From a bacterium (GTDB lineage: Bacteria > Patescibacteriota > Minisyncoccia > Phycocordibacterales > UBA2100): a stretch of 64,000 nt of DNA. The notes beneath the pieces were generated by a model. That model ran no database searches. It had not been told where the DNA came from and worked only from the letters and a program-made list of their open reading frames with translations. The position numbers were made by a program, and so were the translations under genes. Location: the NCBI GenBank assembly GCA_016789445.1, contig JAEUQT010000001.1, forward strand, positions 195,603 to 259,602, read 5' to 3'. Below are positions 16,423 to 55,042 of this stretch, piece after piece (within the stretch, counting starts at the first letter, position 1; each line of letters begins with the position of its first letter).

Positions 16423-16428
16423 ACGGAA

Positions 16429-16834: not shown

Positions 16835-16853
16835 AGCCAGTGTAGGGTGCGAA

Positions 16854-18011: not shown

Positions 18012-18020
18012 AAAAATCAA

Positions 18021-18053
18021 AAGACCACTCTCGCGAGTGGTCTTTTCTTTCTT
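18021..18053. terminator. bidirectional terminator between retropepsin B and rplE
   Basis: AAGACCACUC-UCGC-GAGUGGUCUU flanked by an A-run upstream and UUUCUUUCUU downstream. The two genes are convergent. Confidence 0.7.
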
Positions 18054-18594: not shown

Positions 18595-18598
18595 AAAA

Positions 18599-18907
18599 TT
18601 AGAGGTTCGAACCGCTCTTTACTGCGACGCGCTGGCGCGAGCCATCCTTGCCGCGGGTGATCTTGATGCGGGACGGCTTGCCATCCTTCGGATCCATGAC
18701 AGCGACGTTGGAAATGTGGATCGGCATCACCTTGTCGATGATCTGACCCTTACCGCTCGTGCGAGTAGCCTTGCGGTGCTTCTTCACCATGTTGACGCCG
18801 TCGATGACGACCGCGTCGTGCTTAGGAAGGACGCGCACGACCGTGCCCGTGTTTCCCTTGTTCTTTCCGGCGATGACGATCACCTTGTCTCCTTTCTTGA
18901 TCTTCAT
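18599..18907 (-). CDS. rplX: 50S ribosomal protein L24
   Basis: Start at internal MKIKKGDKVIVIAGKNKGNTGTVVRVLPK (KOW motif). The upstream part of the ORF is a Ser/Arg-rich out-of-gene extension. Confidence 0.9.
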   Translation of the reverse strand: MKIKKGDKVIVIAGKNKGNTGTVVRVLPKHDAVVIDGVNMVKKHRKATRTSGKGQIIDKVMPIHISNVAVMDPKDGKPSRIKITRGKDGSRQRVAVKSGSNL

Positions 18908-18911
18908 ATAG

Positions 18912-19292
18912 TTAGACGATTTCCGGTGCCAAGGTACCGATGCGCTGATAGCCACGCTCGACGACTTCGCGCGGGATCGGACCGAACACACGGGATGCCT
19001 TCGGCTCCTTCGGGTCCTTACCGGAACCGGTGATGAGGACGACGGCGTTGTCATCGAAGCGGATGTAGCTGCCATCCTTGCGGCGCATAGCCTTGGTCTG
19101 GCGGACGACGACTGCCTTGTGCACTTCCTTCTTCTTCACGGCCTTGCGCGGCTGTGCGGTCTGGATGGAGATGACGACCTGGTCGCCGACCTGTGCGTAG
19201 CGCTTCTTGGAACCGCCGAGCACCTTGAAGATGCGTCCGATTTGTCCTCCGGAGTTGTCTGCGATCTTTACGAGTGTGCGGTCCTGAATCAT
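18912..19292 (-). CDS. rplN: 50S ribosomal protein L14
   Basis: MIQDRTLVKIADNSGGQIGRIFKVLGGSKKRYAQVGDQVV ... canonical L14. Confidence 0.95.
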   Translation of the reverse strand: MIQDRTLVKIADNSGGQIGRIFKVLGGSKKRYAQVGDQVVISIQTAQPRKAVKKKEVHKAVVVRQTKAMRRKDGSYIRFDDNAVVLITGSGKDPKEPKASRVFGPIPREVVERGYQRIGTLAPEIV

Positions 19293-19299
19293 ATAGGTA

Positions 19300-19542
19300 T
19301 TACTTCACGATCTCGAAGTGCTTGCGCTTGGACATCGGCTTGATCTCGCGGATAGCGACCTTGGTGCCGACCGCAACCTCATTGCCTGCGTCGTGGACGA
19401 GGAACTTCTTGGTCTTGAGCATGAACTTCTGGTACTTCGGATGCTTCTCGTAGCGGGAAACAGCCACCGTTGCGGTGTCCTTCATAGCCGACTTCACGAC
19501 GACGCCGTGGAGGATCTTTCCGTTGTTGGTTTTGGTTTCCAT
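19300..19542 (-). CDS. rpsQ: 30S ribosomal protein S17
   Basis: 80 aa; GKILHGVVVKSAMKDTATVAVSRYEKHPKYQKFMLKTKKFLVHD. Confidence 0.95.
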   Translation of the reverse strand: METKTNNGKILHGVVVKSAMKDTATVAVSRYEKHPKYQKFMLKTKKFLVHDAGNEVAVGTKVAIREIKPMSKRKHFEIVK

Positions 19543-19561
19543 ATCTTAAAGTCGGCGCATC

Positions 19562-19765
19562 TTAGCCGTTTTTCTTCGAATTAGCAATCGTGCGGGCTTT
19601 GAGTTCGGTGAGCATGCGGGCGATCTCGTGGCGGAGGTTGCGGCCCTCGCGGACATTGCGGGTGCGGGAACCTGCGCCGCCGAAGCGGAACACACGAAGC
19701 GCCTCGCGCTTCTCCGCGATCTCCTTCTGCAAATCTTCTGCTGATTTCTTAGTGATGTCTGCCAT
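19562..19765 (-). CDS. rpmC: 50S ribosomal protein L29
   Basis: 67 aa; DLQKEIAEKREALRVFRF. Sits between rplP and rpsQ. Confidence 0.9.
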   Translation of the reverse strand: MADITKKSAEDLQKEIAEKREALRVFRFGGAGSRTRNVREGRNLRHEIARMLTELKARTIANSKKNG

Positions 19766-19772
19766 ATGCGTA

Positions 19773-20195
19773 TTACTGACGTGCGATGACGCGGGTCTTC
19801 AACGGGAGCTTGGTGCCTGCCTTGCGGAGTGCTTCGCGAGCCATCGCCTCAGGTGCGCCGTCGACTTCGAAGATGACGCGGCCCGGACGGACGTCGAAGA
19901 CGTAGCCCTGCACATCACCCTTCCCCGAACCCATGCCGACTTCTGCAGCCTTCTGAGTAAAAGGACGGTCGGGGAAGACGCGGATCCAGATCTTCGCGGT
20001 CTTGCCTGCAGCGCGCGAGAGCGCGCGGCGAGCAGCTTCGATCTGGTTCGACGTGACGCGAGCCTGACTCGTCGCCTTGATGCCGAATGAACCGAATGCC
20101 ACGGTGATACCGCGGGTCTCAGGCTTTACGAGTCGCGCGTTGCGGCGGCGACCGGTCTGCCACTTACGATGCTTGGTTTTCTTAGGAGTCAACAT
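19773..20195 (-). CDS. rplP: 50S ribosomal protein L16
   Basis: MLTPKKTKHRKWQTGRRR ... RQAIEAARRALSRA-like core. Confidence 0.95.
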   Translation of the reverse strand: MLTPKKTKHRKWQTGRRRNARLVKPETRGITVAFGSFGIKATSQARVTSNQIEAARRALSRAAGKTAKIWIRVFPDRPFTQKAAEVGMGSGKGDVQGYVFDVRPGRVIFEVDGAPEAMAREALRKAGTKLPLKTRVIARQ

Positions 20196-20205
20196 ACGGT
20201 TTCAA

Positions 20206-20883
20206 TTATGCGCGTGCGCCTTTCTTGTCGTCGAAGATATCGCCGCGGTAGATCCAGACCTTGATACCGATGACACCATACGGGAGATATGCATTCTCAC
20301 GGCAGAAGTCGATGTCGGCGCGGATGGTCTGAAGCGGGACGCGGCCACGCTTGATCTCTTCCTGGCGGGACATCTCAGCGCCGCCGAGGCGGCCGGAGAG
20401 CGCGATGCGCACACCCTGGACGTCACGGTTTGCCATGACCTTCTCGACGGTCTGCTTGAGGACGCGACGGAACGTCTGGCGCTTTTCGAGGCCTTCCGCG
20501 ATCATGTACGCGACGACCGGAGCCTGCGATTCAGGAGAGCGGACTTCTTCGATGTCGAGTTTGACCGGAAGCTTCGGTGCACCCTTCACGGACTGTGCGA
20601 CCTTGGTGATCTCCTTAGTGAGCGTCTGGGAGCCTTCGCCGCCGCGACCGATGACCATACCCGGGCGGGAGGTCTTGATGAGGATGCGGATAGCCTGACG
20701 GGTGCGCTCGATCTCGACCGAAGTGACATACATGCCGCGGAGGCGCTTCTTGAGGAAGCTGCGGATGCGCGTGTCGATCATCACGTTCTGGCGGTACTGG
20801 AGCGGCGTTGCAGCGAACCAGCGCGACTTCCAGTCGCGGATGACGCCGAGGCGATGTGCGTATGGATGTACTGTGTGTGTCAT
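20206..20883 (-). CDS. rpsC: 30S ribosomal protein S3
   Basis: 225 aa; KH domain VTSVEIERTRQAIRILIKTSRPGMVIGRGG; C-terminal GVIGIKVWIYRG. Confidence 0.95.
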   Translation of the reverse strand: MTHTVHPYAHRLGVIRDWKSRWFAATPLQYRQNVMIDTRIRSFLKKRLRGMYVTSVEIERTRQAIRILIKTSRPGMVIGRGGEGSQTLTKEITKVAQSVKGAPKLPVKLDIEEVRSPESQAPVVAYMIAEGLEKRQTFRRVLKQTVEKVMANRDVQGVRIALSGRLGGAEMSRQEEIKRGRVPLQTIRADIDFCRENAYLPYGVIGIKVWIYRGDIFDDKKGARA

Positions 20884-20888
20884 ATAAA

Positions 20889-21329
20889 TTATTCGGCCTT
20901 GGCCTTCTTCTTAGCGGCTTTCTTAGCAGCCGGCTTCTTTTCAACAGCTTCGGCAACCGGAGCTTCAGCCTTTGTCTCCTTCTTTGCAGCCTTCTTCGAA
21001 ACTGCACCTGCAGCGCCGAGCTCGATCTTTACGATCGACATGACGCGGAGGATGCGGCCTGCGCGGCCACGAGCCTTCGGCATGAAGCGCTTGAGGACTG
21101 CTCCCTTGTCGACGGAGATCGACTTCACGACGAGGTCTTCCGGGTTCATCCCCTGCTGACGCGCATTCGCGATAGCAGACGCGAGAAGCTTCTCGAGTTC
21201 AGGAGCAGATTTCTTGGGCGTGAACGCGAGAAGATCGCGCGCGATGAGGACGCGCTTGCCACGGATCATGTCTGCGACGAGGCGGACCTTACGCGGAGAC
21301 TGCTTGAAGTTGGTAAGAAGTGCTTTCAT
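20889..21329 (-). CDS. rplV: 50S ribosomal protein L22 with Lys/Ala-rich C-terminal extension
   Basis: KQSPRKVRLVADMIRGKRVLIARDLLAFTPKKSAPELEKLLASAIANA ... plus a KKAAKKETKAEAP ... AKKKAKAE tail. Confidence 0.9.
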   Translation of the reverse strand: MKALLTNFKQSPRKVRLVADMIRGKRVLIARDLLAFTPKKSAPELEKLLASAIANARQQGMNPEDLVVKSISVDKGAVLKRFMPKARGRAGRILRVMSIVKIELGAAGAVSKKAAKKETKAEAPVAEAVEKKPAAKKAAKKKAKAE

Positions 21330-21331
21330 AG

Positions 21332-21673
21332 TTATTTCTTCTTGGCATCAGCGGCGCCCTTTGCAGCCTGTGCAGCAGCGATCTCGCTCTCCTTTGCCTT
21401 CTGTTCGATCTCCTTCTGCATCTTACCGCCGTGACGGCCGAACTTGGTCGTCGGTGCGAATTCGCCGAGGCGGTGACCCACCATGTCTTCGGTGACGAAG
21501 ACTTCGTCGAAGTTCTTGCCGGTGTGCACGAGGAAGGTGAAGCCCACGAATTCCGGAGCGATCTGAGATGAGCGCGCCCACGTCTTAATGCCGCCAGCGC
21601 CCGGCTTGCGTGCCGAGACCTTCTTCATCAACTTCTCGTCGATGTACGGACCTTTCTTAAGTGAGCGTGTCAT
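21332..21673 (-). CDS. rpsS: 30S ribosomal protein S19 with C-terminal extension
   Basis: [19 protein letters not shown] ... [14 protein letters not shown] ... [18 protein letters not shown], plus a [27 protein letters not shown] tail. Confidence 0.9.
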
Positions 21674-21728
21674 AGTTGTGCGGGGCTACTGTAGCTGGAA
21701 TTTGGCTATAAGTCAAAATATTTTCGCA

Positions 21729-22577
21729 TTATTTCCTCTTGCCGACGCGGCGGCGGCTGACGATGAAGACGTTCGAGTACTTCTTCGGGCGACGAGTCTT
21801 CTGACCCTTGCCAGACGGGCGACCCCAGAGGGTCTTTGCGCGGCGCAAACCGCGACCCTGCTTACCTTCACCTCCACCGTGTGGGTGATCAACCGGGTTC
21901 ATAGCCGTACCGCGGACCGTCGGGCGCTTGCCCATCCAGCGGCTACGTCCTGCCTTACCGATGTTCACGAGGTGATGCTCATCGTTCGAGGCTTCACCGA
22001 CGGTTGCCCATGCACCACCGATGATGCGGCGGACTTCCGTCGACGGCATCTTGAGGTGGGTGTAGCCACCATCCTGTGCGATGACTTCTGCGTAATTACC
22101 TGCAGAGCGGGCGATCTTGCCGCCGTTGCCCGGCTTCACTTCGATGTTGTAGACGAAGGTACCGACCGGCATGTTCTTGAGCGGGAGGCGGTTACCGCGG
22201 GTGACCGGCGCGGTCTCGGAAACGAGGAAGCTATCCCCTACCTGCGCGTTCTTCGGGACGATGATGTAGCGCTTCGCGCCATCTGCGTAGACTGCGAGAC
22301 CGATGAACGCAGAGCGGTTCGGATCGTACTCGATCGTAGTGATCTTCGCTGGGATGTTCTTCTTGTCGAAATTGAAATCGACATCGCGCCAGAGCTGCTT
22401 GTGACCGCCGCCGCGATGGCGCATGGTGATGCGGCCCTGGTTGTTGCGACCGAAGCCGCGCTTGCCGCCGCCCTTGAGTGCCTTGTGCGGCTTGTGGCCG
22501 GAGAGTGCCGCGCGGTAGTTGATGCGCGTCATTGCACGGGAGCTCTTGGTGATCGGACGATAGGTTTTGATAGACAT
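21729..22577 (-). CDS. rplB: 50S ribosomal protein L2
   Basis: 282 aa; GRNNQGRITMRHRGGGHK ... SNDEHHLVNIGKAGRSRWMGKRPTVRGTAMNPVDHPHGGGEGK. Confidence 0.95.
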   Translation of the reverse strand: MSIKTYRPITKSSRAMTRINYRAALSGHKPHKALKGGGKRGFGRNNQGRITMRHRGGGHKQLWRDVDFNFDKKNIPAKITTIEYDPNRSAFIGLAVYADGAKRYIIVPKNAQVGDSFLVSETAPVTRGNRLPLKNMPVGTFVYNIEVKPGNGGKIARSAGNYAEVIAQDGGYTHLKMPSTEVRRIIGGAWATVGEASNDEHHLVNIGKAGRSRWMGKRPTVRGTAMNPVDHPHGGGEGKQGRGLRRAKTLWGRPSGKGQKTRRPKKYSNVFIVSRRRVGKRK

Positions 22578-22582
22578 ACGCG

Positions 22583-22960
22583 TTACGAGATTGTGATAGT
22601 CGTGCCCTTCGCGAGGTAGACGTACGCCTTCTTGCCACCCTGCTTCGTGCCGTACTTACCGGTGCGCATATTGCGGACCGTCTTCGGGTGGATGGTGACG
22701 ATGCGGACCTGACGAGGCTTCACCTTGTAGGTAGCTTCGATCGCGGATGCGATCTGCTTCTTGTTCGCCGAGGTAGCGACGTCGAAGACGTAGACGCTGT
22801 TCGCGGATGCGAAGGTCGCCTTCTCGGTGATGCGCGGATTCATGAGCACGTGTGCGTACGTGTTCTTCATTGCCGGGACAGAAGCCGCTGCTACCGCCTT
22901 GGTTTCCTTCGGCGCAGCTGCCTTCTTGGTTGCTTTGGTGTTACGAGAAAAGAGTGCCAT
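22583..22960 (-). CDS. rplW: 50S ribosomal protein L23
   Basis: LMNPRITEKATFASANSVYVFDVATSANKKQIASAIEATYKVKPRQVRIV, with a basic N-terminal extension. Confidence 0.9.
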   Translation of the reverse strand: MALFSRNTKATKKAAAPKETKAVAAASVPAMKNTYAHVLMNPRITEKATFASANSVYVFDVATSANKKQIASAIEATYKVKPRQVRIVTIHPKTVRNMRTGKYGTKQGGKKAYVYLAKGTTITIS

Positions 22961-22965
22961 ATGCG

Positions 22966-23637
22966 TTAGTTAGATGCCTTCTTCGGAGCGCGGTGCGCGA
23001 GGATCGCGACAGCAGCATCCGGATTTTCGATGACGATGTAGGTGTGCTTGAGGACCGCGACCGGATTGAGATCCTTCACGGAGCTCGAAACGACGTTGCC
23101 GATGTTACGGAAGCTCTTCGAGGATGCCTCCTTCGCATCCGAGAATGCGACGAGAGCGGCGTTCTTCTTCTTTGCGGAGAGCTTGGTGAAATCCTTCGAG
23201 AGTGCGACGAGGGTCTTCTTTGCAGATGCAGTGGACGGCTTCTCGATTCCGAAGGAATCGACGAAGACGATCTCACCTGCGGCGAGCTTCTTGGAGAGCG
23301 CCATGAAGAGTGCCTTTGCGCGCATCTTCGCTGGGATGGTACGCGCAAAGATCTTCTCGTTGCGAGGACCGTGGGTCACACCGCCGCCCTTCCAGATCGG
23401 AGAACGGGACGAACCGTGACGAGCGCGGCCGGTACCCTTCTGCTTCCACGGCTTGCGACCGCCACCGCGGACGTCGCCGCGACCCTTCGTGTGCGCCACG
23501 TTGGTGCGTGCGTTGTCCTGCATCGAGGTGACGACCTGGTGCATGAGCGAGTCATTCCATTCGACACCGAAGATGTTCTCCGGAAGTTCGACGGAACCTG
23601 CCTTCTTACCCTGTGCGTTGTAGATGTCGGTTTTCAT
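22966..23637 (-). CDS. rplD: 50S ribosomal protein L4
   Basis: Start at internal MKTDIYNAQGKKAGSVELPENIFGVEWNDSLMHQVV ... GGGRKPWKQKGTGRARHGSSRSPIWKGGG. Confidence 0.9.
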   Translation of the reverse strand: MKTDIYNAQGKKAGSVELPENIFGVEWNDSLMHQVVTSMQDNARTNVAHTKGRGDVRGGGRKPWKQKGTGRARHGSSRSPIWKGGGVTHGPRNEKIFARTIPAKMRAKALFMALSKKLAAGEIVFVDSFGIEKPSTASAKKTLVALSKDFTKLSAKKKNAALVAFSDAKEASSKSFRNIGNVVSSSVKDLNPVAVLKHTYIVIENPDAAVAILAHRAPKKASN

Positions 23638-23644
23638 AAAATGT

Positions 23645-24253
23645 TTAGCCACGGATTTCGACAAGCGTACCCGGGCGACCTGGGATAGCACCGGAGATCA
23701 TAAGCGTATTGTTTGCGGCATCGATCTTGAGGACCTTGAGGTTCTTGACCGTGATGCGATCGCCGCCCATGCGTCCCGCCATGCGCATACCCTTCACGAC
23801 GCGACCACCTGCACGACCACCGCCACCGATGCTGCCCGGTGCGCGCTCCTTGTTCTTCTGACCGTGCGAGCGAGGACCTCCCTTGAAACCATGGCGCTTA
23901 ACGACGCCCTGGAAGCCCTTACCCTTCGAGATTGCAGAGACCGCAACGACATCACCTTCCGTGAAGTTCGAGACGTCGATGGTTGCACCGCGCTCCGAAG
24001 CTTCGGTCGTGCGGTATTCGCGGATGTGGCGGACAGCGCCCAAATCCTTGAGATGGCCCTTTACCGGTGCGGAGAGGTTCTTCTCCTTGCGCTCCCCTGC
24101 GCCTACCTGGATAGCCTGGTAGCCGTCCTTCTCGATGGTCTTCACCTGGGTCACCTTCATCGGGGTAGCAGTGATGATCGTCACCGCAGAAACGGTGCCT
24201 TTGTCATCGAATATCTGGGTCATACGACCCTTCACGCCGAGCATGAATTTCAT
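23645..24253 (-). CDS. rplC: 50S ribosomal protein L3
   Basis: MKFMLGVKGRMTQIFDDKGTVSAVTII ... KGKGFQGVVKRHGFKGGPRSHGQK. Confidence 0.95.
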   Translation of the reverse strand: MKFMLGVKGRMTQIFDDKGTVSAVTIITATPMKVTQVKTIEKDGYQAIQVGAGERKEKNLSAPVKGHLKDLGAVRHIREYRTTEASERGATIDVSNFTEGDVVAVSAISKGKGFQGVVKRHGFKGGPRSHGQKNKERAPGSIGGGGRAGGRVVKGMRMAGRMGGDRITVKNLKVLKIDAANNTLMISGAIPGRPGTLVEIRG

Positions 24254-43178: not shown

Positions 43179-43529
43179 ATGGTGACCCGGACTGTCGCTG
43201 CAAGCCACTGCTTGAAGCAAATGAAAGAGAAAGTCGGTGCAGCGCTCTATACGAACGAGCGCCCCTCTGAAGCGTTCATGACGCTCGTGGGCGAAATGCG
43301 TGCGCAGGAAGTCATCGGAACGGAAAGCGAACTGCGTGAACTCCGTCGCGAGATCGTGCGGGACGCAATCGGACTCCGATTGAATACGCATGCCGAAGTT
43401 CGTGCCTTGGTCCGACAGCTGGCTCAGAAGCATCAGTGCATAGAGCCGCGCGCAGCAGGAGTCGGCGGTTCCGCGATCGGACACCCCTTCGGCTACGGCC
43501 TCGGCCAATCGGCCCTCGCCTACCAGTAG
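43179..43529 (+). CDS. hypothetical protein
   Basis: 116 aa. Preceded by TGTGGTACTATAT, an extended -10-like element. Followed by a strong + strand terminator. The antisense ORF 43158..43784 is rejected. Confidence 0.4.
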   Translation: MVTRTVAASHCLKQMKEKVGAALYTNERPSEAFMTLVGEMRAQEVIGTESELRELRREIVRDAIGLRLNTHAEVRALVRQLAQKHQCIEPRAAGVGGSAIGHPFGYGLGQSALAYQ

Positions 43530-43573: not shown

Positions 43574-45013
43574 GTATACCACCCCGAGCGTAGCGTAGAT
43601 AAGGCAAAGCAGCCACGCTCCGAACGCTGGCAACTGCACGCTCGATAGCGGCAGCGTCGCGAATGCTTCCGCGACATAGATCACATAGGAGAGGAGGACA
43701 TATGCCGGAAATCCGAAGAACGGGGCGACGATACCGGTGAAAAGCCCGAAGAGAGCGGCGATGGCACTGAGAAGCATCGCCCACGGGATTACGATGAGCG
43801 CCAGAAGGTTTGCCGGCAAAGAATAGAGGCTGAGCATTCCATTCTGATAGAGGAGGAGCGGTACGACGGCGAGCTGCGTACCGATCGAGGCAGCAGCGAT
43901 TTCGCGCAGCCCGAATCTCTCCGTGATTGGGACGAGATACGGTTCGATAACCGGCGTCAGGAATATGAGACCGGCCGTCGCGATGATTGAAAGCTGGAAT
44001 CCCGGATCAAATACGAGCACATACGGATTCCAGATGATCATTGCCGTCGCCACCAGCGCGAGCGCACGCGACGCGAGATACGTCCTTCCTGTCGCTTTCC
44101 CTGTTATCGCGATCACCGCCATTGCTGCGGCACGCGTCGATGCCGAGGCGAATCCGGTGATGGCTGCAAAGAAGAACGCGACGAATCCCGCAAACCCGAG
44201 TCGCAACGCTTGCGGAGTACGCACCATCCAGCGCAACAACGCATCGACGACCACCATGATGTTGTATCCGCTGAGGACCACGATGTGCGTGAGGCCCACG
44301 ATGCGGAATGTGTCAGATAATTCTTCACCAAGCCCGCGTTTATCCCCCACCGTGATGCCGCCGGCCAGTCCCGCCTGTGGTTCGTTGAGCGCATTCGCCA
44401 ATCCATCGAGATACTTCTCTTTGGCACGGATCGCCCACGATTTGAGGAAGAATCCCTCGTTCTCACCAAGGAGCGTCACTTTCGCGAATGACATTTGGTA
44501 CAGAATCCGGTCTTTTGCGAGAAAGCCCGGATACTCGAACACCCTACCCTCACCGGTCTCGAATGCTTCCGGCAATTCGAGCTTCGCTTCCGCACGCACG
44601 ACATCGCCGTACGCAACTTCGGTATGGAGCGGTGCGACAACCAAAACCGCGACGCTATCGACCGTACTACTTGCCACCATCCGCACGCGCACCGGAATGC
44701 GTACATTGTTCTCGCGCGCATCAGGCTCGTCCTGCACTATCCCTTCGATCACCACCTTCTCCCCCACCACCGCATCGAGCTGCGGCTCACGTTCAACGAT
44801 ACCCGTGTGCATACGCGCTGCGCCGAAAGCAAAAGCTGAAAGCGCCACGCAGGTGAAAAGAAATGGAGCAGTATGCTCACGCCAATACGCAACCGCCGCG
44901 ACAAGCGCGGCAAAGAGGAGGAAAAGAATCGTAAACCATCCGAACATCACAAACGTCCGCACGAAGACACCGAGTACGAAAAAGACGAGTACGAGCCAGA
45001 AGCGGATCGCCAT
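43550..45013 (-). CDS. comEC: ComEC/Rec2 DNA-uptake channel, membrane (competence) domain
   Basis: ~487 aa polytopic. N-terminal DUF4131-like region and a competence domain (LGEELSDTFRIVGLTHIVVLSGYNIMVV ... ASTRAAAMAVIAI ... ). Start taken at internal MAIRFWL. Confidence 0.75.
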   Translation of the reverse strand: MAIRFWLVLVFFVLGVFVRTFVMFGWFTILFLLFAALVAAVAYWREHTAPFLFTCVALSAFAFGAARMHTGIVEREPQLDAVVGEKVVIEGIVQDEPDARENNVRIPVRVRMVASSTVDSVAVLVVAPLHTEVAYGDVVRAEAKLELPEAFETGEGRVFEYPGFLAKDRILYQMSFAKVTLLGENEGFFLKSWAIRAKEKYLDGLANALNEPQAGLAGGITVGDKRGLGEELSDTFRIVGLTHIVVLSGYNIMVVVDALLRWMVRTPQALRLGFAGFVAFFFAAITGFASASTRAAAMAVIAITGKATGRTYLASRALALVATAMIIWNPYVLVFDPGFQLSIIATAGLIFLTPVIEPYLVPITERFGLREIAAASIGTQLAVVPLLLYQNGMLSLYSLPANLLALIVIPWAMLLSAIAALFGLFTGIVAPFFGFPAYVLLSYVIYVAEAFATLPLSSVQLPAFGAWLLCLIYATLGVVYKKKTAGS

Positions 45014-45305
45014 CCACTGTAGCGTAGCAAAAGGGTGGCGGCCTCGATGAGAGGCCGCCGGTAGTATGTGGTTATCCGAGCGAGACGCGCGGAACAGGAT
45101 GCGAAGCGCTTTCAGGTCGCTGCGATCCGGCGCGGCCCGTAGGAGCCGGAGCCGAATGCCTTCCTGATTGCACGCCACCTTCGAGCGCTTGCAACTTATC
45201 TTGCATAGTTGCCATGGAACTTCTCCTTGCATGCATCATCCCGCATCAGAGACCCATCGGCGGGATGACAAGAAGATATATGACAGGCCTGCTTGTACTT
45301 TAAAC

Positions 45306-45335
45306 AGATGCACCGCGTCGTCAAGATGACGGCGC
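45306..45335 (-). terminator. hairpin after E1-like gene
   Basis: CACCGCGCCGUCA-UCU-UGACGACGCGGUG on the minus strand (12-bp stem, 1 mismatch). The downstream U-richness is only moderate. Confidence 0.4.
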
Positions 45336-45347
45336 GGTGCGAGGTGA

Positions 45348-46046
45348 TCACCAGCGATCGGATTGCATGCGATCCTCGGCAAGACTGATGTCTCGCCGCT
45401 GTGCGGGAGGCAGACCCCCGTTCAGTGAGGCGTTCCAGCGCACGAATTCATGCGCCATCATGCCCGCAACGATCGCCGCAGTGTATACCACGGAGATCTT
45501 CCCGCCGCAGCCATCGCCGTCGTTCTGAGCATCCGCATCAGGGAACCAGTAATGTTCCCAAAGCGCGATGTGGGCAGGATTATTCGGATCGATCGAGTAG
45601 ACGACGCCATGTGACGCATCCATACGACCATCGAACACATAGCGCACATCAGCATTTCCTTTCAGGCACGTGTCCATGATGAGCTTACGATCACGCATGG
45701 TATCCACGCACATGAAGACGACGGGCGCGAGCATACGAGCTTCCCGGATGAATTCCGGCACGATCGAGACATCGACATCCAGCGATCGCCGCAACGCGTA
45801 CGCGAGCGCCTCCACCTTAAGCTTCCCCACATCGCTCGACGCATATGCCTGATTCGCGAGATTATGCGATTCAAGCACATCGCCATCGACGAGCACGATT
45901 TCTCGCACACCGAGGCGGGCGATACTCCATGCGAGATGGCTGCCCAGGCCGCCGCAACCGATGATTACGATTGGATCATCCCACATCGCAGGATCAAAGA
46001 GCGGCCTATGCCGCGTCACATCAATCATTCCCCTTCTCCTTTCCAT
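45348..46046 (-). CDS. E1-like ThiF/MoeB-family ubiquitin-activating-type enzyme
   Basis: IVIIGCGGLGSHLAWSIARLGVREIVLVDGDVLESHNLANQ (GxGxxG ... DxDxVExSNLNRQ) and FMCVDTMRDR (catalytic Cys position). No paired CxxC Zn motifs of the MoeB/ThiF biosynthetic type. Confidence 0.75.
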   Translation of the reverse strand: MERRRGMIDVTRHRPLFDPAMWDDPIVIIGCGGLGSHLAWSIARLGVREIVLVDGDVLESHNLANQAYASSDVGKLKVEALAYALRRSLDVDVSIVPEFIREARMLAPVVFMCVDTMRDRKLIMDTCLKGNADVRYVFDGRMDASHGVVYSIDPNNPAHIALWEHYWFPDADAQNDGDGCGGKISVVYTAAIVAGMMAHEFVRWNASLNGGLPPAQRRDISLAEDRMQSDRW

Positions 46047-46551
46047 CCGGCTCGACCGGCCATTTCTCAAGACCGCCGGCCGGATACTGACTCGATGTGT
46101 CGACGATCCAGAGGGCGGATTCTACACCCCACATGGCGCGTGCAAGCCATCCCTCTTTGATCATCTGCATGATTTCCTCCCGACCATCGCGCATACACAC
46201 GTTTCCTGCCGCGTTGATATGCGGATGATGATACTCAGATACGGTCTTCGTGAGGTTGTGGGCAGAAAAATAATGCTCTCCGATCTCCACGAGATACTCG
46301 CCGAGGCGGTACACTTTATCTTTCGTAGGAATCCACACAAACCTCGTCCGCGCCAGCACGAGACCTTCTCGGATCGCCACTTGAGGGAATACCTGCGATT
46401 TAACGAGCCGATCGAACTCGTCAGCGGCGGCGAGCGCGATCTGATCCTTCTTGTTAGGAGGCGCGAAATCTGCACACAGATTCCGGAACGCGTCTCGCTG
46501 GGCGAGATACGTCGTATCGTAGTCGCTCTTCATTACATGCTCCTTTCGCAT
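46021..46551 (-). CDS. E2-like (UBC-fold) protein
   Basis: 176 aa; YHHPHINAAGNVCMRDG matches the E2 HPN-x3-G-x-[IV]-C-[LM] catalytic signature. Its 3' end overlaps the E1-like gene start. Confidence 0.55.
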   Translation of the reverse strand: MRKEHVMKSDYDTTYLAQRDAFRNLCADFAPPNKKDQIALAAADEFDRLVKSQVFPQVAIREGLVLARTRFVWIPTKDKVYRLGEYLVEIGEHYFSAHNLTKTVSEYHHPHINAAGNVCMRDGREEIMQMIKEGWLARAMWGVESALWIVDTSSQYPAGGLEKWPVEPDGKEKGND

Positions 46552-46601
46552 TCAAAGAGCCTCTCAAAGAGGTATATACCCGGCATACGCGAGTGTCAAA
46601 A

Positions 46602-46889
46602 CTACTCCTTCTTCTTATCGAGCTTCTCGAGGCCCAACAGCTTGAATACGAAATAGATGATGAATGCGAGGATGAAGAAGTCGATGAGAACCGCGATGAA
46701 ATCGCCGATGAGGAAATTCCCGACCGCAAACGTCTTGATGCCGTCCGCACGCCCCAGAAGGAGGCCGACGAACGGATTCACGATGTCGGTCACGAATGCC
46801 GTGACTACTTTCTGCACCGCAGAACCGAGTACAAAGCCGATGGCGAGGCCCACCACGCCGCGCTCGCGCACGAATTCCACGAACCCCAT
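46602..46889 (-). CDS. mscL: large-conductance mechanosensitive channel
   Basis: FVEFVRERGVVGLAIGFVLGSAVQKVVTAFVTDIVNPFVGLLLG ... FIIYFVFKLLGLEKLDKKKE aligns with the MscL TM1/TM2 and KKEE tail. The start may be 46952. Confidence 0.8.
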   Translation of the reverse strand: MGFVEFVRERGVVGLAIGFVLGSAVQKVVTAFVTDIVNPFVGLLLGRADGIKTFAVGNFLIGDFIAVLIDFFILAFIIYFVFKLLGLEKLDKKKE

Positions 46890-49711: not shown

Positions 49712-50128
49712 ATGAAGACCGACCCGAACTGCATTTTCTGCAAGATCGTCGCAGGGGAACTCCCGAAATTCAAAGTATACGAGGATGAAAATACGCTTTC
49801 ATTCCTCACGATCGAGCCGATGAGCAAGGGTCACACGCTCGTCATCCCGAAAGAGCATGTACCGAACGTCTTCGAAACATCTCCCGACACATGGTCCTTG
49901 GCGCAGGAAACCGTACGCAAGGTCGCTCACGCGGTAGAAAAAGCCATGCAGGCCGATGGCGTAAACATCAACATGAACAATCGCGAGCACGCTGGTCAGG
50001 TCGTCGACCACTTCCACATCCACATAATCCCCCGTTACAAGGGCGACGACCTCCAACACTGGCCCACACGAAAAATCGCCGCCGGTGAAGGCGACGAGAT
50101 TTCCACGAAGATTTCTTCTACTCTCTAG
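49712..50128 (+). CDS. HIT family (histidine triad) hydrolase
   Basis: CIFCKIVAGELP ... DHFHIHIIPR (HxHxHxx). TTGTACTATAG, a -10-like element, ends 7 nt upstream of the ATG (likely leaderless). Divergent from recJ. Confidence 0.8.
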   Translation: MKTDPNCIFCKIVAGELPKFKVYEDENTLSFLTIEPMSKGHTLVIPKEHVPNVFETSPDTWSLAQETVRKVAHAVEKAMQADGVNINMNNREHAGQVVDHFHIHIIPRYKGDDLQHWPTRKIAAGEGDEISTKISSTL

Positions 50129-52053
50129 AACCAGGAACCCAGTTTCGCGAGCGCGTCCTTGAGGAGCTCTTCCATCGCCGCAAGAGCTGCGGCGACCTGA
50201 CTGGTTCCCTCTATCGATGCGGTAGTACAGCTGCTCCTGCTGAAATCAGCGCTGCCGGAGAGCGTACCGTCGATGCAGGTGCGTTCCTGGCCGTACTGGG
50301 CGCAATTACTGGAGGTACTGCGTGAATAGAACGTATGCTTCTGGTTGTGGCTCACGGTCTTGCCGTCGAGGGTGCAGGATCGTCCGGTCGGTTCGGTGCA
50401 TGAGGCATGCGAGTAGGATGCTGACCCATCGAGCGTACCATCGGTACACTTCCGCATCTGATCGAATTGGGAGCACGAGCTGCCGAAGGCGGGATTCTCA
50501 GTGGTGTAGAACGCCTTGCTCTCGCCGTGCTTCACGTACGCACCATCGAGTACGCAGTATCGCTGGCCGGATGGCGCGCAGTACGCATACTGGTACGACG
50601 CAGTACCGCTGAGGACGCCGTTGGTGCATTTGCGCTGCTGATCGATGTTCGCACAATTCGCATTGACGCGCGCGGTATAGAACGTGCGCGTCGCTCCTCC
50701 TGCGACCGTTATGCCGTCGATATCACATCCCTTCTCCGCCACGACCGTACACTTCGGATACTTATAGCTTGCAGAGCCCGAGAGAACGCCGTCATTGCAG
50801 GTGCGGGCAAGCTGATGCGCTTCGCAGCTTGTCGTGTACGGCACCGAATCATCCGACCAGAAGTTACGGCTGGTGCCGTGTGCGACCGTTGTCGTCGATG
50901 TCGTCGTGCCGACCGTAGTGACGACGGTGCAGGACTTTGCTCCTGCAGCCGAACAGTTCGCATAACGGTAATCGCTATCGCCACTGAGTGTGCCGTTATC
51001 GCACGAGCGGGTGCCGGCGAATGCCGAACAGCTCTGCCCGAAGAGGACATCCTCGCGCTTATAGAACGTGCGCGACTGGCCGTGGGCAACCGTTACGCCG
51101 TTGAGCGTACACGATGCGGGCGATGTCGCGACCGTACATGATGGATACGCGTAGTCCGTCGAACCGGTGACGATGCCGTTCGAGCAGGTACGCACCGTAC
51201 TCTGGCATTGTTCACCGAAGACCGGGCTCTCTTTGCGGTAGAACGTACGGGATTCCCCATTCATCATGACAGTACCGTTGTAGGTGCATGATCCGGGGAC
51301 ACTCGAAGCACCGACGCCGCAGGATGCGTACTGATAGCTCGGACTACCCGAGAGCGTGCCGTTGATACACTGCCTCGTCTGACGGTATGAATCGCAACTC
51401 GAGCCTGCAGGGACATACTGCACCGAATAGAAATTCGCGGTTGCGCCGCTCGCGACGAGCACCCCGCCAGCGACACATCCGCCACCGGTCGTCGGATTCT
51501 GCGGAGTCGGTGTTCCTCCGGAACGACAGACGCTCGTAATGAGATTGCGCGTACCAGGTCCCACAAGGCCGTATCCGGTCGAATCAGGCGTTCCCGACGT
51601 GACGAGCCCGTGACGTGACTGGAATCGCTGCACCGCGTACTGCGTCAGGAGGCCGAAGTACCCGCTGATGGTCCCCTCAGGATAGATGCGGGAATCCGCC
51701 GCGAGGAATGCCTGAAGCGCTGTCACATCGGAACCCGACATGCCCTGCTTCAAGGTACGGACGATATTCGGACATGAGCCATATGCACTGCCACCGCCGG
51801 CAGTCGGGATACCGCTCGACGAACCGGTCGTCGTCTGGAGCTGGGATTGAAGCGCCGCAAGCTGGGCGAGAAGCGCGTTGAGCTCAGCCTGCAGTGAAGA
51901 AGAGGTCTGGGCGTTCGTTACCGAGAATAATGCAAGGAGGAATAACGGGGTAAGCGTGACCGAGACGGCGAGTTTTCTCATGGGAAAAGTATACCAAGAG
52001 CGCCGGCTTCCGCCGGCGCTCGTGTGCATATTCCCGTTTCTTACTGCTGACAC
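50125..52053 (-). CDS. secreted protein: coiled coil + PG-binding-1 domain + 7 Cys-rich ~50-aa repeats
   Basis: Signal peptide. QAELNALLAQLAALQSQLQ. PGBD RTLKQGMSGSDVTALQAFLAAD ... GYFGLLTQYAVQRFQ. Seven repeats C-x-[LY]-[ND]-G ... G-[EQ]-S-[RK]-[TA]-F-Y ... C ... R-x-C-x-[DN]-G-x-[LV]-[ST]-G ... Y-x-[YH] ... C. Confidence 0.6.
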   Translation of the reverse strand: MSAVRNGNMHTSAGGSRRSWYTFPMRKLAVSVTLTPLFLLALFSVTNAQTSSSLQAELNALLAQLAALQSQLQTTTGSSSGIPTAGGGSAYGSCPNIVRTLKQGMSGSDVTALQAFLAADSRIYPEGTISGYFGLLTQYAVQRFQSRHGLVTSGTPDSTGYGLVGPGTRNLITSVCRSGGTPTPQNPTTGGGCVAGGVLVASGATANFYSVQYVPAGSSCDSYRQTRQCINGTLSGSPSYQYASCGVGASSVPGSCTYNGTVMMNGESRTFYRKESPVFGEQCQSTVRTCSNGIVTGSTDYAYPSCTVATSPASCTLNGVTVAHGQSRTFYKREDVLFGQSCSAFAGTRSCDNGTLSGDSDYRYANCSAAGAKSCTVVTTVGTTTSTTTVAHGTSRNFWSDDSVPYTTSCEAHQLARTCNDGVLSGSASYKYPKCTVVAEKGCDIDGITVAGGATRTFYTARVNANCANIDQQRKCTNGVLSGTASYQYAYCAPSGQRYCVLDGAYVKHGESKAFYTTENPAFGSSCSQFDQMRKCTDGTLDGSASYSHASCTEPTGRSCTLDGKTVSHNQKHTFYSRSTSSNCAQYGQERTCIDGTLSGSADFSRSSCTTASIEGTSQVAAALAAMEELLKDALAKLGSWF

Positions 52054-53660
52054 TCGCCGTCGTGGAGGTACTCAGCACCTGCAGCGTTGAGCGAGCAGCG
52101 GTTACCGTAGGTCTTCGCATCATGAAGCTGACAGATCGCCGGACAGATCATTCCGGGAGCGCAGGTATTCGCACAGCCGGCAGGACGACCACACACCGGA
52201 GCATACTCCATGGTGCAGGCAACCGAACCTGATTCGCTACTCACGCGTACCGTAATTGATGCTTTTGCTTCCTTCCCTTCTGCATCACGAGCTATCACCT
52301 GTACCGTATAGGTACCCGCTACGGCATAGCTATGCGTAAAGGTAGCTGTTTGCGTGAATACCGGCAGGCTCGTCTGGAGACCAGATGCGTAATTATTCTC
52401 ATCGCCCCACGTGATGTAGTAACTGAGCTGCTGTCCTTCGGGATCAGATGCTTTTACCGTCCAGGTTCCTGACTGGTTCGTCGTCAGTGACGTCGGACCT
52501 GAGAATCCCGAGATGCTTGGCGCCTTACCGCTTCCTGAACCGCCGAAGTAAGCGGTGCAGTACGCATTCTTAGCGATCGTCGCTGCAGGACACGCCTTCA
52601 GTGTGCAGAACGCAGGACCTCCCGGCTCCGAGCGACCGCAACTATTGCAGCCGTCATACCAGCTCTTGCACTGGGCGTCCGCTGACGGATCAGTCGATCC
52701 GGTTCGGCACTGTCCTTCGTATGCGAAGGATGCCCCATCAGCCTCCATCATGCACGTATTGCTGTACGTGGTCGGCACGGGATTGCAGGGCGCCGTGATG
52801 CAGACAACCTGCTTCATGCCGCAGACCGGACGATATTCCTTGGTGCACGCGATTGAACCGACCGTGATCTGCACCTTCGCGATGACGGTCACCGGACAAC
52901 CCGGTGGAGCACAGAAACCGCCTACTTTCTTGAGAGTCGCGGTATAGGTGCCGTCTTTGGAGTAGGTGTGCTGGAGCGAGACCGGATTCGCACAACGCTG
53001 CTGCATGGCATTATCCGTTTCTCCGCAGGAGATCCACTGTGCTTCGCTGCCATCGCCGAAATCAAGGACCGTGTCCTGTCCGTCATAGGCACTCGGACGC
53101 GTCGTGCCATCGCCGATCTTCGAGGTGAACGTCACCGTAAGCGGTGCACCTCCCTTCTGTGGAGTGGCGGTCAGGTCTGTGCCGGAAGTTCCGTTACCGC
53201 CGCACCAGACACGCAGGCGATCTTTCGTCTTAGGACCGAAAAGTCCTGCACCGGCGATACGGGCATCAGCGGTCGCGATAACTCCCTGCGATGCCTGCCA
53301 GCGCACGAGCGCTTCCTTCGTGAGATTACCGAAGAATCCTGATGCCTCAGCGTTGAGATACCCTTCTTGCTTAAGGAATTCCTGCACGCTCTTCACATCA
53401 TCGTTCGTCTGGCCTTGAGTGATCGAGCGATCAAGCACCGTACAAACGCGATGCTTCAACCCCCACGCATTCGGTGTCGTGCCCGATGGCGTGGTGACCA
53501 CCGCCTGGCCTTGGAGGGACCTGATCTGCAGATTAAGCTCGGCGATCTTCGCGAGGAGCTCATTGATGCGGGACTGCACGTCGCTCCCGGTAAGCGCCGA
53601 GGTCGCGAACGGTGCGGCACAGAGCACGATGACGAGCGCGGTGAGGAATTGTTTTTTCAT
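52041..53660 (-). CDS. secreted protein: coiled coil + PG-binding-1 + two PKD-like domains + Cys-rich regions
   Basis: PGBD DDVKSVQEFLKQEGYL ... GFFGNLTKEALVRWQ. PKD-like FGDGS ... HTYSKDGTYTATL and ITWGDEN ... HSYAVAGTYTVQVIARD. Confidence 0.6.
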   Translation of the reverse strand: MKKQFLTALVIVLCAAPFATSALTGSDVQSRINELLAKIAELNLQIRSLQGQAVVTTPSGTTPNAWGLKHRVCTVLDRSITQGQTNDDVKSVQEFLKQEGYLNAEASGFFGNLTKEALVRWQASQGVIATADARIAGAGLFGPKTKDRLRVWCGGNGTSGTDLTATPQKGGAPLTVTFTSKIGDGTTRPSAYDGQDTVLDFGDGSEAQWISCGETDNAMQQRCANPVSLQHTYSKDGTYTATLKKVGGFCAPPGCPVTVIAKVQITVGSIACTKEYRPVCGMKQVVCITAPCNPVPTTYSNTCMMEADGASFAYEGQCRTGSTDPSADAQCKSWYDGCNSCGRSEPGGPAFCTLKACPAATIAKNAYCTAYFGGSGSGKAPSISGFSGPTSLTTNQSGTWTVKASDPEGQQLSYYITWGDENNYASGLQTSLPVFTQTATFTHSYAVAGTYTVQVIARDAEGKEAKASITVRVSSESGSVACTMEYAPVCGRPAGCANTCAPGMICPAICQLHDAKTYGNRCSLNAAGAEYLHDGECQQ

Positions 53661-53683
53661 AAAAATTTCGCTACGTGTAATGA

Positions 53684-55042
53684 TTAATATCCTGCGTAAT
53701 CAGTCCAACCCGAGTGCGTGCACTTGAGCGTGATGGTTTCGACGACCGTCGTAGTCCTGCAGGTGAGCCACTGGCAGAGCTGCGTTCCCGGGGGAACCTG
53801 GGCTTTCTTAGTGGAACCTTCAGGACTGCACTTGCCGCCGATCTGTGTCGCATAGCTCGGCAGCGCAGCCGTCTCTGGAGTAGACGTCGGATGCGTATAG
53901 TTCTGACAATTCGTACCCGTCGGACTGCACTTCTGCCATCCCCCGTTATCGCATTTCATGATCGGTGATGTGGTTGAAAGATAGACTCCCTCGGTGAAAA
54001 AGGGCTGCCAGACGGCGGTCGCACCTGATGCGACGACCTGATTCCCCCATGGCGTAATGCACGCAGCAGCGCTCGTCGTGCTCGCGAGCGAGGCAGTCGG
54101 ATTCAGCGGATTCGAGGAGGTGTTCGCACTTACGCTGCCGGAAGTTACTTTCACACTGAGCGCTCCTACGGCTGTGGCGCCGGAGACATCTTTCACCGTA
54201 ACTTGTACGGCATAGGTACCCGCCTTCGCATAGGAGTGCGAGCCGGTAGAAACCGAAGTAAAGGTGCCGCTGATCCCCGCGATGGTCTTCAGGATGTCCT
54301 CGAATCCCTCATCGCCCCAGGTGATGTTGTACGTGAGTGCGCCACCCTCCGGATCAGTTGCCTGCACCTGCCAGCTACGAAACTCTCCGACACCGATCTC
54401 GGTCGGCCCGGTGATGCCGGTGATGACCGGCGCTTTATTGCCGCTTCCCTGCGCAACGACACAGCGCCACCCGATATGACAGGTATTGTTCATCATTCGC
54501 TCCCAGGTACCGCCGCACGAGATGTTCGGCGCAGTCGCGGTAGTGACCTGCGCGCATTGCTGCTGCGGATTCGCGGTAACGGGAGTCGTGGTGACCGGCG
54601 TCGAGACTACACCCGAACAGAGGGTGAGAATAACCGATCGCGTCTTAGGCCCTACGGCTCCATAACCGGTCGTGGCCGCGCTACCGCTCGAGACGACACC
54701 ATTAGCTGCCTGGAGCTTCTTGATCGCCGCTTCGGTAATTGCGCCGAAATATCCCGTTGAAGCATCGCTCATATAGCCCTTGGCACGCAGGAAGTCCTGG
54801 AGCGCGGTCACGTCGCTCCCCCGAGCACCGACACTGAGAGTGCGGGCAATGGCGGGACACCCTACGGCACCTACCGGAGTTGCGCTAGCCGGCGCGGCGG
54901 GTGCTCCTGATATCTTGTCTTGGAGCGCCTTGATCTGCGAGAGAAGCGCGTTGATTTTCGTTTGGAGCTCTTCCGCAGTCTGAGCGGAAGATGCCGCAGG
55001 AATAAGGATGAGTGCGATAAGAAAAACAGCAGCGGTACGCAT
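53684..55042 (-). CDS. secreted protein: coiled coil + PG-binding-1 + PKD-like domain, paralog
   Basis: PGBD RTLSVGARGSDVTALQDFLRAKGYM ... GYFGAITEAAIKKLQ. PKD-like ITWGDEG ... HSYAKAGTYAVQVTVKD. Confidence 0.6.
   Translation of the reverse strand: MRTAAVFLIALILIPAASSAQTAEELQTKINALLSQIKALQDKISGAPAAPASATPVGAVGCPAIARTLSVGARGSDVTALQDFLRAKGYMSDASTGYFGAITEAAIKKLQAANGVVSSGSAATTGYGAVGPKTRSVILTLCSGVVSTPVTTTPVTANPQQQCAQVTTATAPNISCGGTWERMMNNTCHIGWRCVVAQGSGNKAPVITGITGPTEIGVGEFRSWQVQATDPEGGALTYNITWGDEGFEDILKTIAGISGTFTSVSTGSHSYAKAGTYAVQVTVKDVSGATAVGALSVKVTSGSVSANTSSNPLNPTASLASTTSAAACITPWGNQVVASGATAVWQPFFTEGVYLSTTSPIMKCDNGGWQKCSPTGTNCQNYTHPTSTPETAALPSYATQIGGKCSPEGSTKKAQVPPGTQLCQWLTCRTTTVVETITLKCTHSGWTDYAGY

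Follow-up and report, generated by a model that had tools for sequence, protein, structure and literature searches.

Does a bacterial pair of ubiquitin-type enzymes operate without a modifier of its own? The question was raised by a locus on contig JAEUQT010000001.1 of a patescibacterial genome assembly (GCA_016789445.1), within a stretch of 64,000 nucleotides (positions 195,603 to 259,602 of the forward strand) that was analysed as a whole and is referred to here as the window. An original prediction, made from the sequence, had recognised an E2-like and an E1-like (ThiF) gene at positions 45306–46551 and had taken them for a ubiquitin-like conjugation cassette of which only the dyad was visible. 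In our analysis the two enzyme types were supported, one as E1-like and the other as probably E2-like. Just beyond these coordinates, at 45072..45215 on the minus strand, we found a conserved open reading frame (ORF) of 47 amino acids ending in glycine, and the claim of a bare dyad did not hold. The locus is best explained as a cassette of three genes, encoding an E2-like protein, a minimal E1-like protein and a separately transcribed 47-residue peptide.

Organization of the cassette

The genes and their principal elements are as follows.

46021..46533, minus strand: E2-like gene, 170 amino acids, UBC-like, no Pfam family
46192..46230, minus strand: putative active-site motif HHPHINAAGNVCM, residues 102–114, with Cys113 as the putative thioester cysteine
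46021..46028, minus strand: overlap of the E2-like stop codon and the E1 ATG, 8 nucleotides, ATGATTGA
45348..46028, minus strand: E1/ThiF gene, 226 amino acids, single-domain adenylyltransferase
45072..45215, minus strand: small peptide gene, 47 amino acids, MATMQDKLQALEGGVQSGRHSAPAPTGRAGSQRPESASHPVPRVSLG followed by the stop codon, candidate E1 substrate and modifier

The full-length E2-like ORF spans 46021..46551 (minus strand) and 176 amino acids. Its start is most likely the methionine at residue 7 (ATG at 46533), giving 170 amino acids; this start is preferred because AAGGAG precedes that ATG and because the homologs and independent gene calls are all 166–170 amino acids long. The downstream gene does overlap the E2-like ORF, as had been described, by the 8 nucleotides ATGATTGA, which suggests translational coupling. 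The window was compared with related loci named here by L-numbers (L001, L005, L006, L009, L010–L089, L090–L095, L097, L098, and L100–L105); at all related loci the E2-like and E1 genes overlap or abut. The earlier calls of the flanking genes mscL, rnhA, and comEC were correct. Position 45306 is not a gene boundary and sits within a hairpin/promoter element.

The 47-residue peptide

E1 and comEC are separated in the gene calls by a gap of 334 nucleotides, which recurs in four diverged relatives. Once aligned, these gaps were seen to contain a small ORF that is conserved, including at its C-terminus, and is preceded by the Shine-Dalgarno sequence AAGGAG. In the window, the ORF begins 133 nucleotides downstream of E1, ends with ...PRVSLG, and is annotated by PGAP as a hypothetical protein (JNK62_01525, MBL8158198.1). 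An equivalent ORF of 47–60 amino acids lies directly after E1 in all ten loci examined, representing seven lineages (the window; L090, L091, L005, and L092; L093/L098 from Kaiserbacteria; L094; L095/L097; and L009), and E1 identity among these peptide-bearing lineages falls to 25–37%. The C-terminus has the form [RKH]-x-x-L-G in nine of the ten. Three extra database variants (P0144, P0156, and P0159) also end with ..SLG, and the remaining matches repeat peptides already counted; one homolog comes from a "Patescibacteria group bacterium". The peptides share the N-terminal segment M-[STA]-x-[ML]-[QK]-x-x-[LM]-x-A, followed by a middle part rich in Gly, Ser, Pro, and Ala.

The small ORF is under selection as a protein-coding gene: for five close orthologs, the ratio of nonsynonymous to synonymous polymorphism (pN/pS) was 0.47 in frame, whereas the two alternative frames gave 1.12 and 1.86. 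The glycine at the end is encoded by GGA, GGG, GGC, or GGT, and the stop codon may be TAA, TGA, or TAG, while its position is constant. No Pfam match was obtained for the peptide. An AlphaFold2 (AF2) model built with 11 sequences contained one helix (residues 4–13) and no strands, with a predicted template modelling score (pTM) of 0.21. Judged by sequence and model, the peptide is not a beta-grasp protein and shares with ubiquitin-like proteins (Ubls), which have at least about 65 residues, the C-terminal glycine alone.

The small ORF was also considered as a leader of comEC. This was rejected, because the ORF remains beside E1 despite a changed downstream gene, including where comEC is absent: the gene that follows is comEC in the window group and L094, an oppositely oriented sod in L093, and an oppositely oriented PG_binding_1 gene in L095. 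From its likely start at 45013, the comEC ORF itself continues upstream for 73 codons, across the whole peptide gene.

Expression signals

Four signals flank the peptide gene.

45310..45340, minus strand: GC-rich hairpin right after the E1 stop codon, −23.4 kcal/mol, z −4.4
45297..45324, minus strand: sigma-70-like promoter TTGACG-16-TAAAGT, the sole such site in 44900..46750
45223..45228, minus strand: Shine-Dalgarno sequence AAGGAG, 7 nucleotides before the peptide ATG
45028..45059, minus strand: terminator-like hairpin GGCGGCCUC-loop-GAGGCCGCC and then ACCCUUUUG, between the peptide stop codon and the comEC ATG at 45013

The arm sequences of the hairpin after the E1 stop codon vary between lineages while the pairing is kept, and the promoter-like site overlaps its loop, 3′ arm, and tail. 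CTTGAC followed by a TA...T hexamer at 15–18 nucleotides was present at 10 of 10 loci (the window, L005, L090–L095, L097, and L009). No Rfam family was detected in 44900..46700. From these sequence features, the GC-rich hairpin is probably the terminator of the E2–E1 transcript and overlaps a dedicated promoter of the peptide gene. A separate promoter would suit a substrate that is required in excess over its enzymes.

The E1-like protein

The E1-like protein matched PF00899 with an E-value of 4.5e-24 (85.3 bits against a cut-off of 28.1, residues 34–212), and by this sequence evidence it is solidly placed as a bona fide ThiF-family protein. The motifs behind the earlier ThiF/E1 Rossmann call (GCGGLG, DGDVLESHNLANQ, and FMCVDT) are all present. 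The zinc-binding CxxC pairs are indeed lacking, the only cysteines being at positions 25, 107, 121, and 174. Conserved in the E1 clade are GxGxxG, D48, D50, N56-x-x-N59-Q60, K71, D109, and R135, the last of which is invariant. Cys174 lies within an (A/G)CGG motif; it is invariant in the 14 E1s that adjoin E2-like genes and nearly so in a second alignment.

None of the NCBIfam equivalog cut-offs for ThiF or MoeB was reached, and all were missed by a factor of at least 2 (PRK08644, 77 vs. 159 bits; TIGR02356, 67 vs. 275; MoeB models, 31–42 vs. 376–449). The best NCBIfam matches were ThiF models below their cut-offs, and TIGR03736 (PRTRC_ThiF) scored 38.5 bits against a cut-off of 144.75. A profile of 14 E1 members searched against PDB matched MccB (1.3e-15), Uba1 (5e-15), and ThiF (3e-14), with similar scores for UBA5, TcdA, PaaA, BubCD, MoeB, and Cap2. 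Since the distances to MccB, Uba1, ThiF, UBA5, and TcdA are similar, we regard these proteins as a separate clade of minimal E1s. The missed cut-offs and the near-equidistance agree with the original prediction that the protein is not a biosynthetic MoeB/ThiF activator. A PADLOC run, which had been proposed along with that prediction, gave a divided result: nothing for the E2-like protein, but partial matches of E1–E2 models to the Rossmann region of the E1 (about 65–100 residues, E-values down to 2e-17). Neither enzyme has a relative among GTDB representative genomes, and the lineage is therefore not among the species representatives.

The E2-like protein

The UBC signature reported for this protein was found in part. 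The motif and its Gly/Cys spacing are present, but the literal third residue is histidine, H-P-H and not H-P-N, in the segment YHHPHINAAGNVCM at 46192..46233 of ORF 46021..46551 (minus strand). When the window was translated in all six frames, the pattern HP[NH][IV]x3-4Gx[IVLF]C occurred once, and 300 Markov simulations produced it not at all. The spacing of H-P-H-I-x3-G-x-x-C equals that of HPNINSNGSIC in UbcH5. Among 37 family members, which share N-x-T ... H-H-P-H-[IV]-N-x2-G-x2-C-M ... W-P, residues G78, N93, P104, C113, W158, and P159 are invariant and H105 is nearly so; Cys113 is also invariant in 16 long family members.

The family is uncharacterised. A word-index homolog search returned just two proteins, and an exhaustive hidden Markov model (HMM) search of 1.84 billion cluster representatives returned 92 at E ≤ 1e-3 (clusters at 50% identity) and 12 at E ≤ 1e-10. 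One homolog, 27% identical, is from Candidatus Kaiserbacteria. No model in Pfam, NCBIfam, PADLOC, or PHROGs covers the family. UQ_con (PF00179) matched the protein below threshold (E 0.045, 13.8 bits against a cut-off of 27) and weakly matched only four of the 37 members, and the Prok-E2 families of Pfam gave no match to it. UBE2L3 chains matched the family profile weakly (E 0.06). Alignment with hhalign to four human UBCs gave a probability of 60% and an E-value of 8.5e-5, in a register that places H103-P104-H105 on HPN and C113 on C85 and spans the helix, beta-meander, and active site.

The original prediction expected a UBC fold for the 176-residue product. The AF2 model is confident (mean predicted local distance difference test, pLDDT, 90.9) and has a UBC-like topology of helices, a beta-meander, a loop bearing HPH and the cysteine, and then two helices, but Foldseek found nothing significant in PDB and hence no significant UBC match. 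The top, non-significant PDB matches include RWD domains of Knl1, which are UBC-like, and in BFVD the sole matches were three phage proteins, all uncharacterised (best E 1.8e-3). These lines of evidence, individually weak and mutually consistent, make it probable that the protein is E2-like.

Related cassettes in phages

Relatives of both enzymes were examined on one Logan contig of 85 kb and on seven contigs from IMG/VR, most of them about 190 kb long. There the E2-like domain forms the C-terminus of proteins of 400–800 amino acids, often as two paralogs, beside an E1 of the same clade. The phage E1s (L100–L105 and L006) match the window E1 clade with hmmsearch E-values of 1e-45 to 1e-52, and the E2-like domains, which bear the HPH...C...WP motif, match with 1e-10 to 1e-24. 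A protein with the JAMM signature E...HSHx7Sx2D is encoded between the E2-like and E1 genes, its matches to Prok-JAB being weak (E about 0.01). Right after E1 comes a gene for a 68-amino-acid ThiS-like protein ending in GG (L102) or GGA (L101), or, in L006, for a tandem di-beta-grasp protein (SLBB 4.8e-9, ThiS 2.9e-4). These cassettes place the E1 clade and the E2-like family in Ubl-conjugation systems and mark the slot after E1 as that of the modifier. By gene order, the window peptide is in the position of the phage beta-grasp Ubl.

Neither the short nor the long E2-like proteins had matches among GenBank/INPHARED phages, a viral scan with the short E2-like alignment gave no match, and of two scans of JGI metagenomes, the first returned none and the second only four loci. 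JAMM and E1 also occur, without an E2-like domain, on at least 263 other viral contigs (about 100 kb), which inform the E1 clade only. No published description of phage E2-like/JAMM/E1/Ubl cassettes was found by literature searching.

Several other features of these contigs were recorded. Paired long E2-like paralogs occur in L100 (5995-8853), L101 (5998-7317 and 10711-11916), and L103 (5998-7314 and 9387-10580). Their N-terminal parts of about 300 amino acids match nothing in Pfam but conserve the motifs NPH and LFDLPH, and this domain could be a built-in target-recognition (E3-like) module. The di-beta-grasp protein of the phage-like 85-kb contig (L006 8766-9224, 152 amino acids) has two repeats, both ending in KQTKGN; this contig further contains a gene for an SMC-like ATPase and, 7 kb downstream, another ThiF gene (16174-16726). 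In L010–L089, at about positions 7000-10300, an HSHx7Sx2D JAMM gene lies immediately upstream of a small same-clade ThiF gene; what usually comes after these two is a reverse-transcriptase-like polymerase (phrog_2825), and there is no obvious adjoining Ubl.

Proposed mechanism

Our starting points are observations: the gene structure, its conservation, the co-occurrence of the three genes, selection on the small ORF, the family membership of the E1, the conserved cysteines, and the phage relatives. From them we infer the E2 fold and activity, the role of the peptide as E1 substrate, a relay through thioesters, and what the targets are. We favour a three-component E1–E2 cascade for the activation and transfer of a mini-modifier, and put its probability at roughly 50%. 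The E1, presumably a homodimer of the ThiF/MoeB type, would bind the basic-x-x-Leu-Gly tail of the peptide and adenylate its Gly47 using ATP. As a thioester, the acyl group would then go to the conserved E1 residue Cys174 and/or straight to Cys113 in the HPH-x7-C motif of the E2-like protein, which would move the peptide onto a target amine, most simply a protein lysine. Neither an E3 nor a deubiquitinase would take part; maturation would not require a deubiquitinase, because the peptide gene ends at Gly. With its own promoter, the stoichiometric substrate could be made in excess of the two translationally coupled enzymes.

Somewhat more tentatively, we suggest that this stand-alone and largely disordered peptide, some 50 residues long, acts in Patescibacteria as a true ubiquitin-like modifier without a beta-grasp, composed only of a docking helix and a basic-x-x-Leu-Gly tail, that it has replaced the Ubl and JAMM of the phage cassette, and that it serves housekeeping tagging. 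To our knowledge, the characterised E1–E2 pathways (eukaryotic ubiquitin and Ubls, archaeal, Bil, and Bub) all use a beta-grasp modifier, apart from the cyclic-oligonucleotide-based antiphage signalling system (CBASS), where an enzyme tail is used. If the proposal is correct, this would be an E1–E2 pathway with a dedicated modifier that lacks the ubiquitin fold; that fold would be dispensable for E1–E2 tagging, a docking helix and a C-terminal tail being sufficient. It would also give a protein-tagging pathway to Patescibacteria (candidate phyla radiation, CPR), whose cell biology is almost unknown, and one of housekeeping in ultra-small bacteria instead of immunity. Three small genes, about 1.5 kb in total, could reconstitute the pathway. 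The 92 clusters of the E2-like family link patescibacterial chromosomes with uncultivated jumbo phages and bear on the transfer of ubiquitin-type systems between phages and hosts and on their subsequent simplification.

Several observations weigh against this cascade. The HNLANQ motif (window 45852..45866, E1 residues 55–59) replaces, throughout the clade, the NLxRQ of E1, ThiF, MoeB, and MccB; in the alignment with MccB, its NLTRQ faces NlaNQ, so that the canonical N-L-x-R-Q is missing. The arginine of this motif contacts the ATP phosphates, and with asparagine in its place clade-wide, the adenylation chemistry could therefore differ. The peptide is short and of low complexity, which makes the alignment of its middle part weak, and its co-occurrence with E1 is no proof of a substrate relationship. 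The peptide of L094 (7263-7427) ends with ...TRPQLN, with Asn instead of Gly. Finally, the search for a conventional Ubl and JAB covered 64 kb of the genome.

Alternative explanations

Asparagine is the residue of MccB-type chemistry, so the L094 branch might do something different, and it leads to the first alternative: a pathway resembling those of peptides that are made on the ribosome and modified after translation (RiPPs). Here the E1 would activate the C-terminus of a precursor peptide, as MccB and PaaA do, the E2-like protein would be a carrier or scaffold, and the product would be a modified peptide, or one coupled to a small molecule, and not a protein tag. The candidate substrate is short and unstructured, with a conserved leader-like N-terminal helix; the terminal Asn of L094 is the one that MccB-type chemistry needs; and MccB, the top PDB match of the E1 profile (E 1.3e-15), adenylates the C-terminus of a ribosomal peptide (PMC4010828). 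MccB is, however, barely ahead of Uba1 or ThiF, the 226-residue E1 is too small for the N-terminal peptide-clamp domain, and the nine peptides of ten that end in Gly are incapable of forming the microcin-C succinimide. The conserved neighbourhoods hold no exporter, immunity, or tailoring genes. A UBC-like partner with an invariant cysteine is not known in RiPP pathways, and a search of a 2025 review of ThiF enzymes in RiPPs for E2-like gave no match. The phage relatives employ genuine Ubls. We consider this explanation unlikely.

Canonical E1–E2 systems and the phage relatives use beta-grasp modifiers, and the window is part of a contig of at least 328 kb. The dyad could thus be real, with a conventional beta-grasp Ubl, perhaps also a JAB, encoded elsewhere in the genome and the small ORF being unrelated or a regulatory leader. 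In the six-frame HMM scan of the whole window, there were single copies of the E2-like, E1, and peptide genes and no further Ubl-like or JAMM-like ORF. The search for small beta-grasp ORFs and JAB genes that accompanied the original prediction as a suggestion was thus negative within the 64 kb, while a Gly-ending peptide that is not beta-grasp is present. An 82-amino-acid ORF ending with ...EIGGGK (12164..12412, minus strand) was weighed as a Ubl candidate and set aside: it lacks a Pfam match, is 33 kb away, and is unlike the phage Ubls. Moreover, the small ORF stays with E1 when the downstream gene changes and fills the Ubl slot of related cassettes, and its Leu-Gly end and the basic residue at −4 are kept across lineages whose E1s are 25–37% identical. 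A distant Ubl is accordingly quite improbable. The patescibacterial loci contain neither JAMM nor a beta-grasp gene; the absence of JAMM fits the three-gene cascade, because the peptide gene already ends at Gly.

A sulfur-carrier function is more doubtful still: adenylation of the peptide glycine would lead to a thiocarboxylate, as in ThiS, MoaD, or TtuB, and the cysteine of the E2-like protein would serve a persulfide or acyl relay, in line with the minimal ThiF/MoeB size of the E1, its top NCBIfam matches to ThiF models, and its conserved cysteine, which we take to be at the position of the ThiF/MoeB crossover-loop cysteine, but the ThiF/MoeB/TtuC-type equivalog cut-offs are all widely missed, no rhodanese, cysteine desulfurase, or thiazole/molybdenum cofactor gene was present in any neighbourhood examined, and the UBC-like partner and the JAMM-bearing phage relatives favour conjugation.

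Genomic setting and biological role

The three genes lie in the order recJ - DUF975 - rnhA - (mscL) - E2-like - E1 - peptide - comEC or sod, near rpmB, rpsL, and rpsG. This arrangement is common to the window group, Kaiserbacteria, and L094, and is kept from 100% down to about 32% E1 identity, Ca. Kaiserbacteria included. In L095/L097, the neighbours differ and the three genes are still together. The GC content at the locus is 0.54–0.59, with no difference from the flanks and no compositional break. No defence genes or regulators (CapW, CapH/CapP) were detected near the triad in the neighbourhoods examined. From gene order and composition, the triad looks like a vertically inherited core-region function of a Parcubacteria/Kaiserbacteria-type lineage and not like a defence island. 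The source contig bears locus tags JNK62_01525-01535, and its S12 protein groups with sequences of Parcubacteria/Minisyncoccia.

Whatever the modifier, a role as an anti-phage cassette of the Bil/Bub kind, the framing first given to the locus, is probably wrong: characterised bacterial E1/E2 operons are immune systems (PMC11601596, PMC10557695) and phages carry relatives of both enzymes, but the triad keeps its chromosomal place among housekeeping genes even between deeply diverged lineages, defence neighbours and CapW or CapH/CapP regulators are lacking at uniform GC, PADLOC gives none for the E2-like protein and partial Rossmann-region matches for the E1, and defining features of Bil, Bub, and CBASS are missing.

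Other features of the window

Three consecutive large genes for secreted proteins of 642, 539, and 452 amino acids (50125..55042, minus strand), with PG_binding_1 and PKD-type domains, also occur in relatives; the 642-residue protein contains many repeats of a cysteine module, C..NG.LSG...Y.Y..C. An ORF of 116 amino acids without a Pfam family (43179..43529, plus strand) is convergent with comEC and has the same position in L001, L090, and L091; in L092, where comEC is missing, it directly follows the peptide gene. Many long spurious ORFs are antisense to real genes, for example in the ribosomal-protein cluster (14000..24000 and elsewhere). Lists of the longest ORFs are misleading here because the window, at 57% GC, holds many of these spurious antisense ORFs.

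Comparison with known systems

The cassette fits none of Bil, Bub, CBASS, ThiF/MoeB, or MccB, at least one tested defining feature failing for each. Full-text literature searching found no Patescibacteria E1/E2 system and no E1–E2-dependent peptide modifier, which is no proof of novelty. As the comparison set for bacterial operons, we used types 6a-6e of Iyer et al. (2006; PMC1779556).

Bil and Bub share with the window cassette the logic of E1, E2, and a modifier with a C-terminal Gly, without an E3. Bil (BilABCD) combines a multidomain E1 (IAD-AAD-CYS) with an E2 of the CEHH type, a JAB, and a Ubl resembling ISG15 (PMC10557695, PMC11601596), whereas the window E1 has 226 amino acids and one adenylation domain, and no JAMM or Ubl is present in the window. 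In Bub (6E/DUF6527), the E1 and E2 have no catalytic cysteine and the chemistry is that of oxyesters; the system also includes a serine protease (DUF6527) and Ubls of the beta-grasp type, with Ubl-E2 or E2-E1 fusions (PMC11601596). In the window, by contrast, Cys113 and Cys174 are conserved, the genes are separate, and there is no DUF6527 in the neighbourhood annotations. The PRTRC or type 6d operon encodes a Ubl, JAB, E1, E2, and an alpha-helical protein, and its E2 has no His before the Cys (PMC1779556); the window E2-like protein has His-Pro-His before the Cys, and the E1 falls below the TIGR03736 cut-off.

ThiF and MoeB differ from the window E1 in their CxxC pairs, which it lacks, and no ThiS-like ORF is present in the 64-kb window. 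MccB with MccA, and PaaA, resemble the cassette as ThiF-fold enzymes acting on the C-terminus of a short gene-encoded peptide, and MccB is the nominal best PDB match, through the Rossmann part only. MccB has 348–358 amino acids with an N-terminal peptide-binding domain vs. 226 in the window. MccA ends with Asn and gives rise to a peptidyl-nucleotide antibiotic, accompanied by genes for export and immunity, and MccB has no E2-like partner; no transporter genes adjoin the window triad. MccB adenylates the C-terminus of its ribosomal peptide (PMC4010828).

In pupylation (Pup/PafA/Dop), the modifier Pup ends with GGQ or GGE, the window peptide with SLG, and the two are not similar by eye. Pup is ligated through the side chain of its C-terminal Glu by a glutamine-synthetase-like ligase, not by E1/E2. 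Like the candidate here, it is a small disordered modifier with a defined C-terminal motif, and it is attached to proteins; its disorder in the free state has been described (PMC5286830).

The phage cassettes are alike in having the same E1 clade, the same E2-like domain, and a modifier gene after E1; the window differs in its 170-residue E2-like protein, the absence of JAMM, and a 47-residue peptide that is not beta-grasp. Type II CBASS differs in its gene content: Cap2 is a single E1–E2 fusion in a defence operon with a CD-NTase and the JAB Cap3, whereas the window has separate enzymes and a stand-alone candidate peptide, with no CD-NTase, effector, or JAB. Cap2 nonetheless conjugates the C-terminus of a cGAS-like enzyme, which is not a Ubl (PMC10557695), and so provides a precedent for an E1/E2 pair acting on a C-terminus outside the beta-grasp Ubls.

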